Below are positions 5,494-56,298 of a DNA stretch of 64,000 nucleotides, in pieces. The translations under genes were made by a program, and so were the position numbers. The DNA is from Longimicrobiales bacterium (GTDB lineage Bacteria > Gemmatimonadota > Gemmatimonadetes > Longimicrobiales > Gaopeijiaceae), in NCBI GenBank assembly GCA_965238005.1, contig OZ250165.1, positions 1,248,001 through 1,312,000 on the forward strand. The letters run 5' to 3'. The notes beneath the pieces were generated by a model, which was not told the DNA's origin, ran no database searches, and saw nothing but the letters and a program-made list of their open reading frames with translations. Every line of letters starts with the position of its first letter. Position 1 is the stretch's first letter.

Positions 5494-6253
5494 GCACCGT
5501 CTCCTTGTCTAGCAACTCCGAACCCAGCGGCGAAGCGGTCCTCAAGCCGGACACAGCGGAGTGGGCCAGCGAAGCACTTCCGCGGTTGCCAAGCGGGTGG
5601 AATATTTGCCTATTCGATGGTCGGTTCGGGCGAGCAAGGTCGCTGGCTGGTGCCGTTCTTGGCCAGACCGAAGCGGCCGGGAAGCGAGCTCACAGCCATC
5701 CCCATAGACGAGCGGCCAGCCCATCTTCGGAGTGGCCGCTTCACTGCCGACCCTGTCCCGTCCCCCTGTCACATTCGGGGCTCCTCATTCGTTTCCATGC
5801 TCGATGAGAGTTCCTAGCCAGACTGAAGGTATGGAGTACCCAATGAAATCGAGAGTTTTTGTACTTATTACGGTGGTGGAGCTTGTGCTTGCGGTGGTGA
5901 CTGCGGTGCTGGCGGGATGCGGCGACGACCCCACGTTTCCCAGCGAACTCCAGGGCGGAGTACTCGCGACGTTCCAGGTCGAGGCGGAGCAGTTCAAGCT
6001 CTGGGTGACCAACGAGAGCACGATCCAGCAGATCCTGGATCTGCAAGCGGGCACCAGCACCGCGTCGATTCCGAACGGGCCACTCTTGGAAGGGGCTGGA
6101 CCGGCCGCATACAACAGCCCCTACTCCTGGCACCTCGACGCGGTCGAAACCGAGATGGCCGACGCCACCATCGAGCTCTGCAGCGGGCTCCCGAGTGGAG
6201 TTGACCCGCTTTGGTGGACACCTCAGTAGTGAGGGAGACAGGAGGAGTCCACG

Positions 6254-6568
6254 ATGCCAAGAACACATGCGCCGTACCCGCCGGAGTTTCGGCGGCAGAT
6301 GGTCGAGTTGGTCAGGTCGGGCCGCTCCGTGGAGGAGCTGGCCCGGGAGTTCGAGCCCTCAAACGGGGCGATACGGAACTGGGTCAAACAAGCTGACTTG
6401 GATGAAGGCCGTCGCAGTGACGGGCTGACGACGGAGGAGCGTGGGGAACTCAGGCAGCTTCGGCGTGACAACAAGCGTCTGCGCATGGAGCAGGAGATTC
6501 TAAAAAAAGCCGCCGCCTGGTTTGCTCGGGAGAGCAACTCGATCCCGGAACGGGGTTCGAGTTCATGA
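6254..6568 (+). CDS. IS3 transposase OrfA (HTH)
   Basis: YPPEFRRQMVELV...EQEILKKAAAWFA; A7G slippery site at 6502-6509 for -1 frameshift into OrfB. Confidence 0.95.
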   Translation: MPRTHAPYPPEFRRQMVELVRSGRSVEELAREFEPSNGAIRNWVKQADLDEGRRSDGLTTEERGELRQLRRDNKRLRMEQEILKKAAAWFARESNSIPERGSSS

Positions 6569-7416
6569 AGACGAATCAGGCCGACTTCCCTGTGCGGGCG
6601 ATGTGCCGTGTGCTGGATCTCTCCCCCAGCGGCTACTACGCCTGGTTGGATCGCGAGCCTTCGGCTCGGGCGAAGCGAGATGAGGAGCTCACAGAGCGGA
6701 TCGAGACGGTCTGGCGCGAGAACCGAAGGGTCTATGGCCGGCCCCGCATCTACGCGGACCTCAAGGAAGCTGGCGAGCGGGTCGGTGAGAAGCGGGTGGG
6801 CCGGCTCATGAAGCAGGCCGAGATTGTGGGAGCTAGCCGGAGGCGGCGCGGCCCGAAGACGACCAGGCGCAACGAGGACGCCCGTCCCGCGCCGGATCTC
6901 ATCGAGCGGGACTTCAGCGCAGACGGGCCAGACCAGTTGTGGGTGGCCGACATCACCTACATCCCGACCTGGGCGGGGTTCTTGTACCTCGCGGTTGTGC
7001 TCGACGTCTGGAGCAGGCGGGTGGTCGGGTGGTCGATGGCTACGCACCTGCGCACCGAGCTCGTCCTGGACGCGCTGAACATGGCGACCTGGCAGCGCCG
7101 GCCCGAATGCGTCATCCATCACAGTGATCAGGGAACCCAGTACACCTCGATCGCCTTCGGCCTACGCTGCAACGATGTCGGTGTGCGGCCCTCGATGGGC
7201 TCCGTGGGCGACGCCTACGACAACGCGATGTGCGAGAGCTTCTTCGCGACGCTCGAGTGCGAGCTACTCGACCGGCAGCGCTTCCGGACCCAGGCCGAGG
7301 CGAAGATGGCCGTGTTCGACTTCATCGAGGGCTTCTACAACCCCCGGAGGCGACACTCGGCACTGGGTCAGCTGTCGCCCATCAACTTCGAGCGTCGCCA
7401 CGGAGCGGCAGCATGA
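6565..7416 (+). CDS. IS3 transposase OrfB (DDE/rve)
   Basis: WVADITY, HHSDQGTQY, DNAMCESFF and YNPRRRHS motifs. Confidence 0.95.
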   Translation: MKTNQADFPVRAMCRVLDLSPSGYYAWLDREPSARAKRDEELTERIETVWRENRRVYGRPRIYADLKEAGERVGEKRVGRLMKQAEIVGASRRRRGPKTTRRNEDARPAPDLIERDFSADGPDQLWVADITYIPTWAGFLYLAVVLDVWSRRVVGWSMATHLRTELVLDALNMATWQRRPECVIHHSDQGTQYTSIAFGLRCNDVGVRPSMGSVGDAYDNAMCESFFATLECELLDRQRFRTQAEAKMAVFDFIEGFYNPRRRHSALGQLSPINFERRHGAAA

Positions 7417-7949
7417 GAAACCTGCGTGGCCAAGTTGCCCTTTACTCCCCCGCTGCGCGGGGGAAGCTTTCCTCTCCCCAGCGAGGGGGACAGACTATAA
7501 ACCTCAGTGTTCACCCGTCCACTGAAACGGGACAGCTCCAGAGTTTCGTTGAGGAGAACCTGGATTCGTGGCTGGACGAAGTCGGACAGTACTGCCCCTG
7601 GTCGGCACAGTTGCTCAGCGTGGAGGACTACCGCTGACCGAAGCAGGACACTTTCGTTGTGGGTCTCGGGAACCATTAGGATCGCCGATGTATACCCCGT
7701 AGGGTAAAATGCACGAGCGCTCAAAAAAGTTCTTTACCGGATGACGCCGGATCGGTCCGGGATGATCCCCTACTTACCCTACCCGCGGCGGTGGAGGCGA
7801 CAGCCGGTGGTGCTGAGCTGCGACATCGACAGCGACCGGATGCTGATCACTCCGTTTTACACACCTTTTGAACTTACTTCGTGAATATCGAGGCCCGGAT
7901 CTTCGGAGGATCAAAATGAAACAGGATAAGAAACGAATGCGGATCCTAG

Positions 7950-48953: not shown

Positions 48954-49691
48954 TCAGCGGATCTCCGGTCCTCCCATCCGGTTGTCGGGCACGAAGCGGT
49001 CGCGGGCCGGCATCACGACGGCCGGGAGCGTCTCGGCGTCCATGACGGCATCCTCCGGGATGATCTCATTGAGGTAGAGGACGTAGGCGGCCGCGCCGTA
49101 CACCTCGTTCGCCGTGAGCGAGCCGGGTTCGTCCAAGGGCATGGTGCGGTTCACATAGTCGAACAGGGTCGTGGCGTAGGGCCAGTAGTTGCCCACTGTC
49201 TTCCGGTACTGTCCGCGGACGGCACCGAACGGAAAGCCCTCCCGTGGCTCCCGCCCTACCAGGCGGTCGTTGGGCCCCTCCGTACCAGTGGGGCCGTGGC
49301 ACACGGCACACTTGGCCGCGTAGACCCGAGCACCCTCGGCCACCGAGGCGCTTCCCGGGGGCAGTCCTGCACCGTCCGGCCTGACGTCGATGTCCAGCGC
49401 CGCGATCTCGGCTTCGGTGGCGTCCCGGCCGATCGTGAAGGTCGTGGGCCAGTGCTCGGGTGCGGCGGTGGGTTCGGGCGGGGCGCCGAACCCAGGAGGG
49501 GCTTGGGGCCCGACCGTGGCTTGCCCGCTCTCAATGGCCGCCCCCGATTCGCACGCCAGGGGCAGGAGGGCCAAAGCGAACATGATCGCGGCCGTCACGG
49601 CCATGGGCTGCCCGGTCTCGGGGTGCCTCCGATGCGCACCCAAGGCGTGCCTCCGCGCCGTGCTTTTGGTGTGCTTCGGCGGCGCGCTCAC
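48954..49691 (-). CDS. Monoheme cytochrome c (SoxD-like)
   Basis: IDVRPDGAGLPPGS, CAVCH and TVGNYWPYATTLFDYVNRTMP motifs; GTG start overlapping the soxC stop. Confidence 0.88.
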   Translation of the reverse strand: MSAPPKHTKSTARRHALGAHRRHPETGQPMAVTAAIMFALALLPLACESGAAIESGQATVGPQAPPGFGAPPEPTAAPEHWPTTFTIGRDATEAEIAALDIDVRPDGAGLPPGSASVAEGARVYAAKCAVCHGPTGTEGPNDRLVGREPREGFPFGAVRGQYRKTVGNYWPYATTLFDYVNRTMPLDEPGSLTANEVYGAAAYVLYLNEIIPEDAVMDAETLPAVVMPARDRFVPDNRMGGPEIR

Positions 49692-50953
49692 GGCCCATCC
49701 CCCGTCCCGAAGAAGACCCGCCCGTCCGACTCCACCTTCCAGGGTCTGATGCTGTTGTAGTGGTACGCACTGCCCTCTCCCCTCACGGCCATGAGCGTCT
49801 GGAGATCGGGCTGTGTGTACCCCGTCTCGTCCACGGCGCGGCTCATGAGAACGGTCTCTCGGCCGTCCCAGTTCCACAGGTGCCGGAAGCGCGTGGTGCA
49901 CTTCGAGAGGATGGGGTCCTGGAGCTCAGCCGGCTGCCAGGTGCGACCTCCGTCGGTGCTCACGTCCACCCGCGTGATGCGGCCCCGGCCGCTCCAGGCC
50001 AGCCCCGAGATCTCCCACCAGCCACGCTCCGGCAGCACGTACGGGAAAGTCGGGAAGGTGATGGTCGACTTCGCGTCCATCACGAGGCTGAACTGGCGTG
50101 CCGTTCCGTCGGCGAGCGGGTCGGTGTACTTGGAGGTCTCGTCCCGCGTCATGAAGGGCCCGTCCGACACTTCGATGCGGCGGATCCACTTCACCTGTGC
50201 GTTACCCTCCCATCCCGGCAGGAGGAGCCGAGCCGGATAGCCCTGTTCGGGACGGAGTGCCTCGCCGTTCTGGCCGTAGGCGATCATGGCGTCGTCCCAG
50301 GCCTTCTCCACAGGCACGCTTCGGGCCATGACGGCCGCGTCCCCGCCTTCGGCCAGCAGCCAGGTCGCTCCAGGCTGCACCCTCACCTCCCGAAGGAGCG
50401 TGGCCAGGGCCACCCCCGTCCATTCGCTCGTGCTGAGCAGCCCGTCGATCTGCTGCGGGGAGGCCTCGGGGCGGGGACTTCGGTTGTACGCCGCCCCACC
50501 GTTCCCGGAGCACTCGACGAAGCAGAGGCGTGACGCGGCGGGAAAGCGCTTCAGGTCTCGCAGCGTGAACGTCATCGGCCGCTCCACCATGCCGTGGATC
50601 AGGAGTGAGTAGCGTTCCGGATCGATGGTGGGAATGCCGCCGTGGTGCCGCTCGAAGTGGAGGTCGGCGGGCGTGACGATCCCGCGGAGCTCGTGGAGCG
50701 GAGTACGAGACGACGACGACGGACCGGGTCGCGACACCTGGCGCCGGGGCTGCTCGCTCGGGGCCCTCCGGCCCAGCTCGCTGGTGTTGGCTCCCAGCAC
50801 TCTGGTACGATCCTGCGGCGCCTCCTGCGGTGCCTCCTGCGGCGCGGGCGCGGCATCACCCAAGGTGATGGCGTCGGCCTGCGTCTTGAGGAGTCCCCCT
50901 GCGATGAGTCCCCCGGTCGCTCCCAGCATCGCTCGGCGTGACAGGCTGGCCAT
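49688..50953 (-). CDS. soxC: Sulfite dehydrogenase-type molybdoprotein (SoxC/SorA), Tat-exported
   Basis: LSRRAMLG Tat signal; LHFERHH, ECSGN, QNGEALRPEQGYP, GWEGNAQVKW and SRAVDETGYTQP motifs. Confidence 0.9.
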   Translation of the reverse strand: MASLSRRAMLGATGGLIAGGLLKTQADAITLGDAAPAPQEAPQEAPQDRTRVLGANTSELGRRAPSEQPRRQVSRPGPSSSSRTPLHELRGIVTPADLHFERHHGGIPTIDPERYSLLIHGMVERPMTFTLRDLKRFPAASRLCFVECSGNGGAAYNRSPRPEASPQQIDGLLSTSEWTGVALATLLREVRVQPGATWLLAEGGDAAVMARSVPVEKAWDDAMIAYGQNGEALRPEQGYPARLLLPGWEGNAQVKWIRRIEVSDGPFMTRDETSKYTDPLADGTARQFSLVMDAKSTITFPTFPYVLPERGWWEISGLAWSGRGRITRVDVSTDGGRTWQPAELQDPILSKCTTRFRHLWNWDGRETVLMSRAVDETGYTQPDLQTLMAVRGEGSAYHYNSIRPWKVESDGRVFFGTGDGP

Positions 50954-51104
50954 GGCGCCTCCCGGATCTGTGGGTCTTCGCGACAGGTCCCCTCGCGGAG
51001 TATCCCCGGGGAGTCCAGGGATCGCCCCTCCCGCCACGTTTGCAGACAGCAACCTCCGTTCCGCCCGACGCCTCCCGCAAGTCCCCCCACGGGAGCCCGT
51101 CGCG

Positions 51105-51133
51105 TTGACAGCCCAGACGGACTCGTCTAGCGT
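51105..51133 (+). promoter_or_regulatory. Sigma70-type promoter implying a leaderless transcript
   Basis: TTGACA (51105-51110), 17-nt spacer, TAGCGT (51128-51133); ATG 51141 lies at the expected start-site distance. Confidence 0.65.
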
Positions 51134-51140
51134 CATGGTC

Positions 51141-51473
51141 ATGATCCGGTTGCGGGAATGCTTGGCCAAACGATTGGGGACCGAGCTGGCGATTTGGATG
51201 CTGGCCGTAGGGGTCGCCATACCCCTCCTCGATCGCGATCTCTTGGGCTCCGAGATCGCCATCGAGGCGGAGCACCAGGCGGCATGTAGCCTCCCCACAC
51301 ACGATCACAGCATCTGCGTCCAGTACGGGAAGCAGCTATGGGCCAGTAAGCCCGCAGATGTCGAGAGGGCCCTGCCGCCCCCCGTGGTCGAAGCTGCGGC
51401 ACCCACTCAGGATGCAGCACCGCGCTCACGCCTCGCCCGTCCCACCAACCCCCGAGCTCCACCCACCCTCTAG
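51141..51473 (+). CDS. DUF2946-like leader protein with His/Cys motif and C-terminal RAPP
   Basis: 110 aa: basic N-terminus, hydrophobic segment, HQAAC...HDHSIC, ...RPTNPRAPPTL*; hidden within track ORF 50625-51473. Confidence 0.75.
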   Translation: MIRLRECLAKRLGTELAIWMLAVGVAIPLLDRDLLGSEIAIEAEHQAACSLPTHDHSICVQYGKQLWASKPADVERALPPPVVEAAAPTQDAAPRSRLARPTNPRAPPTL

Positions 51474-51597
51474 ATCCTCTCTGCAGCACGCAGGGAGATC
51501 GTGAGCGCGGTGCATCCGCACTCTCGCGGAAACTCGCGCCCCGTCGCTCGTCGCCCCTTCCCAGGCAGTCGGAAATGGGCGTCTCAGGGGAAGGACC

Positions 51598-52932
51598 ATG
51601 AAGCAGAAACCGACCAGAGGCTTGAGCCTCTTCATCCTAGCCGGCGCTCTCGCGGCGTGGCCCGTAATGGCGTGGGGTCAGGATATTCCAAGAACGCAGG
51701 CCGACTCGCTACGGGCGCAGATCGCCCAGCTCCGGGCGCAGCTCGACAGCATCGGACTGCTCCTCGAGCGGGGTGAGGCGGAACCGGCCGAAGAGGAGGA
51801 CGCCCTCGCCCGGCTCCGCGCTGCCGCCCGGGCCGCAGCGGGTGGCGCGCAGGCCGACGCGCCTGCGGAGCCGGAGGGCGACCAGGAGTTCGTGGGCCGG
51901 TCGCGCTCTCTCCAGGCACTGAACCCGGAGATCAGCGTTACGGGTGACATCTACGTTTCTGTCCAAAGCGAAGACCCGGACGCCGACAACTTCGTCCCGA
52001 GGGAGTTCGAGTTCTCCTTCGTCTCGGCCCTCGATCCGTTCACCCGGGCGAAGATCTTCGTCTCGGCGGAGGAGGAGGGGGCGGGCGTCGAGGTCTTCCC
52101 GGGCGCCGAGGAAGAGGAGGAGGAGCACGGCACCGCCCTGGTCGTCGAAGAAGGCTATATGGAGTGGGTGGGGATCGCCGGCGGGCTGGGGATCAAGGTA
52201 GGACGCTTCTTCCAGCAGTTCGGCCAGCTCAACCGCTGGCACGGCCATGCCCTCCAATTCCAGAGCCGGTCGCTCCCCCACCTGGCCTTCATCGGGGAGG
52301 AAGCACTGGCCCAGGACGGCGTATCGCTCCACTGGTTGCTTCCCAATAGCGGAGGCGGTGCGTATGAAACGACGTTTGAGGTCACGAGGAGCCGCAACGA
52401 CATCCTGTTCGGTGAATCCCACGGTCTGAGCTACCTGGGTCATTTCAACGCCTTCTGGCAGCTGTCGTCGTCCACCGATCTGGACCTGGGCTTCAGCGCC
52501 GTTTTCGGCGATCACGTCGAGGAAGACGGCCAGTTCACGAATCGACTCTTCGGTGCAGAGGCGTCGTTCAATTGGATTCCGCCGGATCGCTCCCTGTACC
52601 GCGGCTTCACTCTTCGGGGGGGCGTCATGCTCTCCGATCCGGGAGCCGTGGCCGGTCTGCCGGCGCCCGAGTCGGCCCTGGGCCTTTGGTCCCTCGCGGA
52701 GCTCAAGCTCTCGAGACAGTGGATTGCCTCCGGCCGGTACGAGTGGGTAGAGAACCCCGAGGATCCGAGTCAGACGGCGTGGCTCGCGTCGCCCGCGCTC
52801 ACGTATTGGCAGAGCGAGTTCGTCCGCCTGAGGGCCGAGTACGACATACTGGGAAACCCGGGGGAGACCACGGGGCAGTTCACGCTGCGGATCACCTTCG
52901 CCATGGGCCCGCACAGGCACGAGACGTACTGA
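51598..52932 (+). CDS. Putative outer-membrane beta-barrel associated with metal uptake
   Basis: Signal peptide, coiled coil, LNPEISVTGD, FGQLNRWHGH, SEFVRLRAEY, C-terminal GPHRHETY. Confidence 0.7.
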   Translation: MKQKPTRGLSLFILAGALAAWPVMAWGQDIPRTQADSLRAQIAQLRAQLDSIGLLLERGEAEPAEEEDALARLRAAARAAAGGAQADAPAEPEGDQEFVGRSRSLQALNPEISVTGDIYVSVQSEDPDADNFVPREFEFSFVSALDPFTRAKIFVSAEEEGAGVEVFPGAEEEEEEHGTALVVEEGYMEWVGIAGGLGIKVGRFFQQFGQLNRWHGHALQFQSRSLPHLAFIGEEALAQDGVSLHWLLPNSGGGAYETTFEVTRSRNDILFGESHGLSYLGHFNAFWQLSSSTDLDLGFSAVFGDHVEEDGQFTNRLFGAEASFNWIPPDRSLYRGFTLRGGVMLSDPGAVAGLPAPESALGLWSLAELKLSRQWIASGRYEWVENPEDPSQTAWLASPALTYWQSEFVRLRAEYDILGNPGETTGQFTLRITFAMGPHRHETY

Positions 52933-55627: not shown

Positions 55628-56161
55628 TCAGAACGACCAGTTCACGATAGGGAGGAACTGAAGACTCTCCTTCCCGCTGATGATGTTGATGAGGCCGATC
55701 TGGATCCCGTACATGTTCTCGGCCCAGTTCACGATCCCGAGCTGGAAGCCCGAGATGTCCCGGGCCCGATTGAAGATCCCGAACTGGAACGCTTCGCCGA
55801 AATCGATCTCGTTATAGAGACCGAAGCCCTGGACGCCGAAGAACTCAGCTTGATTGATGTTCACCAGAAGGTTGTCCTGCCACCCCAGGAAGGCGCCTTC
55901 GACGACGCCGTACTGGAGCCCCTTGGACAGGCCGCCCGTGTTGTGATTCACCACGCCGATGTCGAGGCCCCGGACGTCGACGTTCTTGTTGTAGAGACCT
56001 AGCCGCAGGATTCGGATGGCCGAGTCCTCTCCCCGCAGCTGGAGGGGTGGGAAGAGCGAGAGCTCGAAGTTCTCGACGGACTCCTGAGCTGCGACCTGAA
56101 TAGGGGAGACCGCGACTGCAATGAGAAATCCGACCACTAGGACGAACGGAGACGCTCTCAC
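55628..56161 (-). CDS. Surface repeat protein (GxQxGxxN repeats, LA_2272-like)
   Basis: GLDIGVVN, FQFGIFN, GFQLGIVN, GIQIGLIN and terminal LPIVNWSF. Confidence 0.75.
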   Translation of the reverse strand: MRASPFVLVVGFLIAVAVSPIQVAAQESVENFELSLFPPLQLRGEDSAIRILRLGLYNKNVDVRGLDIGVVNHNTGGLSKGLQYGVVEGAFLGWQDNLLVNINQAEFFGVQGFGLYNEIDFGEAFQFGIFNRARDISGFQLGIVNWAENMYGIQIGLINIISGKESLQFLPIVNWSF

Positions 56162-56232
56162 TGGTCCCTCCCTACCTTGATGTCTGATGGTCTTGTTCGT
56201 GGTTTCCAAGGCGAAACACGCCCAGGGTACGC

Positions 56233-56298
56233 TCACTCTACCCGGAGCGCCACTATTGGGTCGATGCGGGCGGCCCGCACTGCGGGGATAGCGGCCAA
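56233..56298 (-). pseudogene. Last ~21 codons of another ADOP-like ABC permease
   Basis: LAAIPAVRAARIDPIVALRVE*. Confidence 0.7.

Follow-up and report, generated by a model that had tools for sequence, protein, structure and literature searches.

A candidate metal-sensing arrest leader peptide heading a porin–ZnuA-type operon in Gemmatimonadota

Introduction

The DNA considered here (the window) is a stretch of 64,000 nucleotides (nt) from a Longimicrobiales bacterium of the phylum Gemmatimonadota (GenBank assembly GCA_965238005.1, contig OZ250165.1, positions 1,248,001 to 1,312,000 of the forward strand). It contains a short open reading frame (ORF) of 110 amino acids (aa), followed on the same strand by genes for a porin-like outer-membrane protein, a ZnuA-family periplasmic metal-binding protein, and an ABC-3 family metal permease. 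A sequence-only reading of this region had proposed that the ORF encodes an exported, His/Cys-containing leader peptide with a terminal RAPP motif, an analogue of CruR and CutF, and that it controls the operon behind it. In this study, that proposal was followed up by homology and structure searches, by comparison of related loci, and by RNA folding.

RAPP and RGPP are reported as the most robust arrest motifs and as depleted from proteomes, and small exported ORFs carrying them are described upstream of genes for TonB receptors, YcnI, PCuAC, and PepSY proteins (PMC12992588). The CruR family (DUF2946) is defined by a CXXC motif and an RAPP motif with 45 intervening residues. In the model given for it, the RAPP stall blocks Rho so that the operon stays on, and copper lifts the stall; altered spacing between CXXC and RAPP impaired regulation (PMC9426467). 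For CutF, copper bound in the periplasm is described as lengthening a stall at PPP, which melts a stem-loop that shields the next ribosome-binding site (PMC9973294; 10.1101/2025.02.05.636593).

Results

Organization of the locus

The leader ORF starts with the ATG at 51141, ends with a TAG stop codon at 51471-51473, and has the C-terminus PRAPPTL. It is masked in the ORF listing by a 282-aa ORF in the same frame (50625-51473), as the sequence-only reading had noticed, and the hydrophobic segment, the HQAAC-x4-HDHSIC cluster (residues 45-59), and the RAPP end all lie where that reading had put them. The gene-caller form of the protein (P0001, 112 aa) begins at an ATG at 51135, which is upstream of the inferred transcript start, since the latter is placed at about 51141. 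Codons 1 to about 65 have a G+C content of 0.80 at third positions (GC3) and 0.43 at second positions (GC2), like the neighbouring genes, and the Pro/Ala-rich C-terminal third is less typical in composition. The coding-type composition, together with homologs down to 25% identity in which the motifs are kept, indicates that the leader ORF is a real, conserved gene.

An AlphaFold2 model based on 104 sequences contains a helix at residues 2-35 (predicted local distance difference test, pLDDT, 92-98), a short helix at residues 57-64, and coil elsewhere, with a mean pLDDT of 74; no folded domain was seen in this model past the N-terminal helix. R3, R5, K10, and R11 stand before the hydrophobic core, so the natural reading of the model would be an N-in, C-out membrane anchor. 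The features of the locus are collected in Table 1, in which the assignment of the RAPP codons to the ribosomal P and A sites was carried over from CruR, ApdA, and ApdP (PMC12992588).

Table 1. Features of the leader and its operon; positions are those of the window.
Feature	Position	Strand	Basis
-35 box TTGACA	51105..51110	+	Same offset in 27/37 loci
-10 box TAGCGT (TAnnnT type), after a 17-nt spacer; ends 7 nt before ATG 51141	51128..51133	+	Comparison
Leader ORF, 110 aa and stop codon TAG	51141..51473	+	Sequence, composition, homologs
N-terminal basic segment and hydrophobic helix (residues 2-35), predicted signal-anchor/export segment	51144..51245	+	AlphaFold2
Candidate metal-binding cluster E42-A-E44-H45-x3-C49-x4-H54-D55-H56-x2-C59	51264..51317	+	Conservation
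Linker, variable in sequence and fixed in length (45 residues separate C59 and R105)	51318..51452	+	Alignment
RAPP codons CGA GCT CCA CCC (residues 105-108), presumed arrest site (P site CCA, A site CCC)	51453..51464	+	Conservation
Last two codons and stop codon, ACC CTC TAG; C-rich end	51465..51473	+	Pairing partner of the Shine-Dalgarno region in relatives
Hairpin 1, 8 pairs (one G-U), loop AGCAC, arms 51477-51484 and 51490-51497	51477..51497	+	Sequence, folding
CCTTCCC, partner of the Shine-Dalgarno region in the best fold of the window	51556..51562	+	Folding
Purine-rich Shine-Dalgarno region GGGGAAGGA of the porin gene	51587..51595	+	Mean unpaired probability 0.36
Outer-membrane porin-like beta-barrel gene, 444 aa	51598..52932	+	AlphaFold2, Foldseek
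ZnuA-family metal-binding periplasmic protein, 354 aa	52945..54009	+	PF01297, 5.3e-40
ABC-3 family metal permease, 273 aa	54064..54885	+	PF00950, 1.7e-17

Conservation of the leader family

A word-indexed search found 14 homologs of the leader with 51-100% identity, none of them named and none with a Pfam domain. H45, C49, H54, D55, H56, C59, R105, A106, P107, and P108 are invariant in their alignment. Pattern scans added further loci from a genome collection (L001-L003) and a metagenome collection (L004-L018); the leaders L009, L010, and L012-L015 have only 25-37% identity and keep the same plan. Sixteen aligned leaders, down to 25% identity, have 110 aa and no indels, the exception being L015, in which an extra C before the stop codon adds four residues.

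A 16-sequence profile was run against 1.84 billion cluster representatives and matched 310 of them at E ≤ 1e-3 and 161 at E ≤ 1e-10. Of 401 sampled genomes in the class, the same profile matches 77, and of the 336 with high quality, 57. Among the best 150 of the 310 representatives, R[AGS]PP lies within the last 16 residues in 141 (135 RAPP, 5 RGPP, 1 RSPP) and is followed by exactly two residues in 114 of these; the nine others look truncated, frameshifted, or point-mutated (e.g., RAQPLA, SRAPRTA). HxHxxC is present in 148 of the 150. From its last Cys to the Arg there are 45 intervening residues in 122 of the 139 representatives with both motifs, and 44-47 in all but one. In an alignment of 104 sequences, H54, R105, P107, and P108 are invariant, P28, E42, H45, D55, H56, C59, and A106 are kept in at least 90%, and residues 60-104 have no consensus. 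The family thus bears what appears to be a molecular-ruler signature, because the 45-residue spacing is fixed while the linker sequence varies.

At 36 distinct loci, RAPP is written with five Arg codons, four Ala codons, and four and three Pro codons. Because the motif is kept through synonymous codons, the constraint lies on the peptide and not on the RNA. As a background, 38 RAPP and 44 RGPP motifs occur in the last 10 residues of the 45,268 stop-to-stop frames of at least 60 aa in the whole genome, and nearly all of these frames have a non-coding composition.

These properties bear on whether the ORF encodes an ordinary, stable periplasmic metal-binding protein anchored in the membrane, for example a chaperone or an accessory importer subunit, in which RAPP would have no regulatory role. 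Such a protein would be conserved, would combine a membrane helix with metal ligands, and would always be co-located with transport genes, as is the case here. However, half of the protein varies in sequence and not in length, no domain is folded beyond the helix, and RAPP is nearly invariant at its fixed distance from the stop codon. RAPP is, moreover, described as counter-selected in ordinary proteins (PMC12992588). We consider this explanation quite improbable.

Some candidates were rejected. L003 (Micromonospora) matches with 34% identity over 62 residues inside a 449-aa open frame and was not accepted as a homolog, and L016-L018 are chance pattern matches with a non-coding-looking frame and no porin or ZnuA gene nearby. 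L053 is unconvincing: this 63-aa frame, which ends in RGPP, shares its DNA with a longer frame and has an MmeI-type restriction gene next to it. L001 was dropped from the counts, as its leader frameshifts and most of its porin and ZnuA genes are missing. In this long-read-looking locus (6001-7560), the RAPP reading is lost and the first 56 residues of the porin directly precede the permease gene; the locus reflects a faulty assembly or else a decayed operon copy.

Promoter and transcript start

The 110 nt before the start codon of the leader were aligned for 37 loci, which exclude the duplicates L007, L011, and L014, the frameshifted L001, the non-homologs L003 and L016-L018, and three loci with a TonB-receptor gene. 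TTGACA occurs in 27 of the 37 and TTGAC in 29. TAnnnT follows 16-19 nt after the -35 box in 24 (TAGCGT in 9, TAGCCT in 7) and ends 5-10 nt before the ATG. Both boxes are conserved, the spacer between them is not, and no Shine-Dalgarno (SD) sequence was found ahead of the leader ATG in the aligned loci. Since the -10 box ends so close to the ATG, the mRNA is apparently leaderless or near-leaderless. The comparison thus supports both the TTGACA-17-TAGCGT promoter of the sequence-only reading and, as a prediction, its transcript start at about 51141.

A promoter/terminator consensus scanner reported 0 promoters and 0 terminators in 50900-51700; it misses the promoter because TAGCGT matches TATAAT at only three of six positions. 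The promoter apparently has no obvious operator. A conserved promoter with an unconserved spacer and no SD sequence fits control after transcription initiation.

The downstream operon and neighbouring genes

The porin-like protein has no Pfam or NCBIfam family match. Its AlphaFold2 model (pLDDT 75.5) consists of a barrel and an N-terminal coiled coil, and the top PDB matches in Foldseek are the general porins OmpM1, chitoporin, Omp32, and OprP/OprO (E ~1e-10). H215, H217, and H439 are invariant in 27 homologs. An acidic loop, EEEEEEH, lies at about residues 171-178 and has low pLDDT. The coiled coil, the acidic loop, and the invariant His residues suggest that the modelled barrel may be a cation- or metal-selective channel. 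The best NCBIfam match of the ZnuA-type protein is AztC, at 76 bits far below the cut-off of 350, and that of the permease is AztB, at 42 bits also under the cut-off. The nearest solved chains of the binding protein are zinc- and manganese-type binders. The structure search labelled 5W56 and 5W57 merely as 'periplasmic solute binding protein'; we take these chains to be AztC.

By tblastn, the order leader, porin, ZnuA, ABC-3 was found in all seven loci that are long enough (L002, L006, L007, L008, L012, L013, and L014); the remaining loci break off inside the porin or ZnuA gene. Thirty genome loci were also compared (L019-L048, L019 being that of the window's own genome). A porin homolog directly follows the leader in 27 of them, and a gene for a TonB-dependent receptor (Plug and CarboxypepD_reg domains) in the other three (L022, L031, and L034). 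A conserved upstream ORF with an H/C motif and a terminal RAPP in homologous operons, which the sequence-only reading had named as a check, is thus what the comparison found. To judge from these neighbourhoods, the context of the leader is portable, as expected of a cis regulator.

In L031 (28-1815), the leader homolog is directly preceded by the C-terminal end of a multicopper oxidase and by an ORF of 244 aa that looks CopB-like by eye, and the TonB-dependent receptor follows it. Given this neighbourhood, some members of the leader family may serve copper rather than zinc.

The same genome holds a second candidate leader ending in RAPP (2678125-2678583, minus strand; locus L052:5126-5584). 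It has a coding-like composition, with a GC3 of 0.71 and a GC2 of 0.53, a hydrophobic N-terminus, and a His-rich sequence (HSHG...PDHHGHG), and it ends in SPRAPPLSI with an internal HERAPPS. Its one Cys lies in the N-terminal hydrophobic segment, and it contains no Cys/His metal cluster. Two IS4/5-type transposase ORFs follow on the same strand, and then OEP and HlyD/CusB-type genes. From this order, the candidate looks like a CutF-like leader of a metal-efflux operon, parted from its operon by an insertion element.

Divergent from the leader promoter, on the minus strand (48957-50953), lie genes for a molybdopterin oxidoreductase with a twin-arginine translocation (Tat) signal and then a cytochrome c. 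The oxidoreductase is of the sulfite-oxidase type (Oxidored_molyb and Mo-co_dimer), and its gene, which ends at 49691, overlaps the cytochrome c gene, which starts at 49901. This pair is common to close relatives only. Beyond the operon, also on the minus strand (55631-56236), lies a gene for a 202-aa protein with LA_2272-family surface repeats (NCBIfam NF047436, 2.8e-13), which adjoins the operon in close relatives too.

RNA structure between the leader and the porin gene

The intergenic regions of the 37 loci are short (69-141 nt) and highly structured. Compared with 40 shuffles per locus, their folding energies gave a median z of -1.26, with z < -2 in 10 of the 37, which is a weak signal. 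A GC-rich hairpin starts 1-17 nt after the leader stop codon in 32 of the 37 loci and shows compensatory changes between relatives.

In partition-function folds, the RAPP-to-stop codons of the leader account for over half of the pairing of the porin SD region (-16 to -4) in 20 of the 37 loci, the porin start codons having been picked by hand, and thus subjectively, from the SD score and the look of the signal peptide. This long-range helix, enclosing one or two hairpins, is the RNAalifold consensus in four of six groups of loci (B, C, D, and F); in group E the anti-SD is a local one, and group A gives a weak result. L026 and L032 differ by a U:A to C:G exchange in the long-range helix. Cognate duplexes have -13.64 kcal/mol versus -12.23 kcal/mol for non-cognate ones, and 0.065% of 20,000 permutations reach the observed mean, a figure inflated by kinship between the loci; duplexes with the 21 nt upstream have only -10.79 kcal/mol. 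By established footprint geometry, a ribosome with Pro107 in the P site would cover the mRNA to about the stop codon (~51473). This footprint would take in exactly the leader segment that pairs with the SD region. When the stalled ribosome was represented by a mask, the mean unpaired probability of the SD region over the 37 loci rose only from 0.35 to 0.41 (control mask, 0.33).

The window differs from this consensus. Its best fold pairs the SD region with CCTTCCC and not with the leader end, the folds that use the leader end lying 1.3-1.7 kcal/mol above it, and no ribosome mask alters SD accessibility, which is 0.36 throughout. The stop codon is TAG here versus TGA in 27 of 36 loci, and TAG weakens the CCCUCUGA:UCAGGGG helix, the one seen in L002, L004, L006, and L008. 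CCTTCCC (51556-51562) is the exact complement of GGGAAGG (51588-51594), just ahead of the porin ATG at 51598. This match is weak when taken alone, since such a 7-mer is found in 6.3% of 20,000 shuffles of 51474-51580.

The sequence-only reading had expected these elements to form a three-part switch: the stalled ribosome would open hairpin 1, GGGAG (51493-51497) would then capture CCTTCCC, and GGGAAGG would be freed. All of the elements exist where they had been placed, and CCTTCCC:GGGAAGG is indeed the best-fold pairing of the window. However, the SD region keeps the same predicted accessibility and the same partners when a mask is placed over the 5' arm of hairpin 1 or over the footprint of a ribosome at the stall site or at the stop codon, and GGGAG can make only five pairs with TTCCC, one of them G-U. 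In addition, the footprint of a ribosome stalled at RAPP would end short of the hairpin, and CCTTCCC is not conserved as an SD partner in relatives. Such a switch thus seems very unlikely; of the expected structures in the gap, the hairpin after the stop codon held up in the comparison and the CCTTCCC pairing did not.

The same arrest leader could also be coupled to the operon as in CruR, with a stalled lead ribosome preventing Rho termination in the intergenic region and no masking of the SD region. This mechanism was proposed from experiments for CruR, the closest known relative (PMC9426467). The genome encodes Rho, a leaderless mRNA would tie the first ribosome tightly to the polymerase, the hairpin behind the stop codon could be a pause signal, and the SD accessibility of the window is indifferent to the stall mask. 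On the other hand, the short and structured intergenic regions are only mildly C-rich (mean C 35% vs G 31%), a Rho site is not evident in them, and they are unlike a typical Rho loading site; the recurrent pairing of the SD region with the last leader codons also counts against this route. We regard Rho-dependent coupling as a possible alternative with clearly less than even odds.

Discussion

In this study, the anatomy of the 110-aa ORF, its conservation, and its synteny with metal-transport genes suggest that it encodes a cis-acting regulatory leader peptide of the CruR/CutF type. We put the probability of this reading at roughly two in three. A strong-looking promoter, apparently without an operator, would provide a leaderless or near-leaderless mRNA, and the N-terminal helix would bring the nascent chain to the membrane. 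At RAPP, with the Pro107 codon in the P site and the Pro108 codon in the A site, peptide-bond formation would stall. The peptidyl-transferase centre would then be 48-65 residues away from the cluster (residues 42-59), which would just have emerged from the ribosome tunnel or the translocon, and metal occupancy of its His, Cys, Asp, and Glu residues would set the duration of the stall. A ribosome stalled on the last codons, abutting the intergenic hairpin, would keep the porin, ZnuA-type, and ABC-3 genes expressed, either by covering C-rich codons that otherwise pair with the porin SD region or by blocking Rho as in CruR. Without metal, a long stall would keep the operon on; with metal, a folding or pulling force would release the stall and turn the operon off.

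We infer this direction of control, in which the stall means on and metal means off, by analogy with CruR; it is the likeliest one because the operon looks like an importer. The opposite logic, in which metal would lengthen the stall of the same arrest leader and so induce the operon, is reported to operate for copper in CutF (PMC9973294; 10.1101/2025.02.05.636593), and nothing in the sequence fixes the direction. However, the genes look like uptake genes, down to the TonB-dependent receptor in three of the 30 genome loci, and induction by the imported metal would be maladaptive. CruR, which likewise heads an uptake gene and has RAPP at the same spacing, is switched off by metal, and CutF is described as stalling at PPP with involvement of elongation factor P (EF-P), not at RAPP. 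Control of the CutF kind is therefore an improbable alternative to the CruR-like direction.

As to where the metal would be sensed, Roy et al. (2022; PMC9426467) argued for cytoplasmic sensing by CruR. In the present family, the conserved helix points to targeting to the membrane, which would place sensing in the periplasm as in CutF. In our reading the metal is of the zinc type, most likely zinc and less likely manganese or another divalent ion. A more specific picture is offered tentatively, and we would not bet on it: the nascent chain may sense periplasmic zinc by forming a co-translational mini zinc-binding fold at the translocon exit, the folding force of which would release an RAPP stall whose last codons double as an anti-Shine-Dalgarno sequence. 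Zinc uptake would thus be controlled from a constitutive leaderless promoter with no DNA-binding repressor, and this arrangement would be widespread in Gemmatimonadota.

Several results weigh against the reading of the ORF as such a leader or against parts of it. The leader of the window does not match PF11162 (gathering threshold 23.7 bits) at E ≤ 1, and a run of PF11162 over the whole genome at E ≤ 10 matched three other places and not the leader. No ATPase gene was found with the permease, and the transporter is thus incompletely understood: the 64-kb window has no open frame that combines Walker A with LSGG, and the seven long loci contain no frame of at least 120 aa with Walker A. The binding protein stands about as far from zinc types as from manganese types, and two FUR-family regulators in the genome could control the operon too. 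At the RNA level, the hand-picked porin starts, the kinship of the loci, the small effect of the stall mask, the best fold of the window with its mask-independent accessibility, and the intergenic composition all count on the same side.

To our knowledge, metal-sensing arrest peptides have so far been shown for copper only, in CruR and CutF. No published description of a zinc-type RAPP leader turned up in a literature search that went largely by titles and the beginnings of abstracts and that did not cover the neighbour table of PMC9973294. If the reading is correct, zinc-type uptake across a phylum would be set by the translating ribosome and not only by Zur-type repressors, and the linker of fixed length would provide a natural system for the release of arrest by ligand-induced folding outside the tunnel. 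Surveys that depend on annotation can easily overlook the family, because its ORF is masked, it stays below the Pfam threshold, and its neighbour is an unannotated porin; the survey method described by Fujiwara et al. (PMC12992588) excluded downstream genes annotated as unknown.

Comparison with known arrest peptides

Although the leader of the window is not a DUF2946 protein by the Pfam model, as a search proposed in the sequence-only reading might have found it to be, 19 of 104 members of the leader family match DUF2946 below threshold (best 17.4 bits, E 0.0077). These alignments are full-length and colinear, beginning at the helix and reaching RAPP where the profile ends, and DUF2946 is the only Pfam family that members approach. 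The Atlas neighbours are Gemmatimonadota clusters; one has the automatic name 'putative DUF2946', and in one, 13% of the members carry PF11162. On these sequence grounds, we read the leader family as a divergent sister branch of DUF2946. The idea of an exported His/Cys leader with RAPP at the head of a ZnuA-type operon is thus backed by the motifs, the 45-residue spacing, the position of RAPP, the synteny, the synonymous RAPP codons, and the approach to DUF2946; formal membership in that family is the part that fell away.

Among the more distant systems, ApdA, ApdP, ApcA, and SecM (RAPP, RAPG, or RAGP) are described as having a C-terminal RAPP-like core near the stop codon and an N-terminal localization signal, with the stalled ribosome regulating a downstream gene (PMC7897499, PMC10951233, PMC12992588). 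They are reported upstream of sec or yidC genes, and the export machinery releases their arrest. By contrast, a porin gene and a metal importer follow the present leader, with no sec or yidC gene directly downstream, and the distance between RAPP and the conserved metal-ligand cluster of the leader is fixed. SLIV_16130 and SLIV_18480 of Streptomyces lividans resemble it, by their description, in having RAPP or RGPP upstream of metal-related genes and a predicted Cys/His metal site, but they belong to another phylum and to other sequence families, and their sites are read as copper sites (PMC12992588).

CutF of Rhodobacter capsulatus is likewise exported and senses as a nascent chain, with a metal motif in the periplasm and a proline stall at the C-terminus, features that would apply here by analogy, and it is described as controlling translation of the next gene through mRNA structure over the ribosome-binding site. 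The rule-based description of CutF-like proteins (PMC9973294) fits the leader: it has 110 aa (<150), a helix at residues 2-35, PP at residues 107-108 (within the last 15), an H/C cluster, and a same-strand gene after an intergenic region of 124 nt (<1000 nt). Ozturk et al. (2023; PMC9973294) listed 5,334 such proteins, including ones with His-only clusters beside HupE/UreJ, and concluded that CutF-like members are not all copper-specific. The leader differs from CutF in having RAPP instead of the PPP at which EF-P is involved. In CutF, copper lengthens the stall and induces a detoxifying oxidase, whereas the operon here is an importer, for which the opposite logic would be expected.

The closest likeness is to CruR (Bp2923) of Bordetella pertussis, the prototype of PF11162, for which Fujiwara et al. 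(2025; PMC12992588) demonstrated arrest in vitro, the P site holding the third RAPP codon and the A site the fourth. Each of the two is a small upstream ORF with an exported product and stands first in a same-strand metal-uptake operon, here with the porin, ZnuA-type, and ABC-3 genes; the export signal of the present leader is recognized from its basic N-terminus and the AlphaFold2 helix rather than by a dedicated signal-peptide predictor. In both, a metal motif ending in xxC is followed by 45 residues (C59 to R105 here), RAPP (residues 105-108 of 110), 2-3 residues, and the stop codon, and both are followed by an intergenic region of ~100-160 nt. A TonB receptor gene lies downstream of CruR (BfrG), as it does in three of the 30 genome loci. 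The differences concern the motif, which is CXXC in CruR and E-x-E-H-x3/4-C-x4-HDHxxC here, with the first Cys replaced by His (H56-S-I-C59, i.e., HxxC; consensus HDHxxC); the length (145 aa vs 110 aa); the usual downstream genes (copper-linked genes vs porin, ZnuA-type, and ABC-3 importer); the phylum (Proteobacteria vs Gemmatimonadota); the apparently leaderless mRNA; and the coupling to Rho, which is reported for CruR only. Thus, the family keeps the presumed RAPP stall and the 45-residue ruler and swaps the copper-type CXXC for a His/Asp/Glu/Cys cluster. The principle itself is not new; the ligand set, the regulated operon, the phylum, and the apparently leaderless promoter are.

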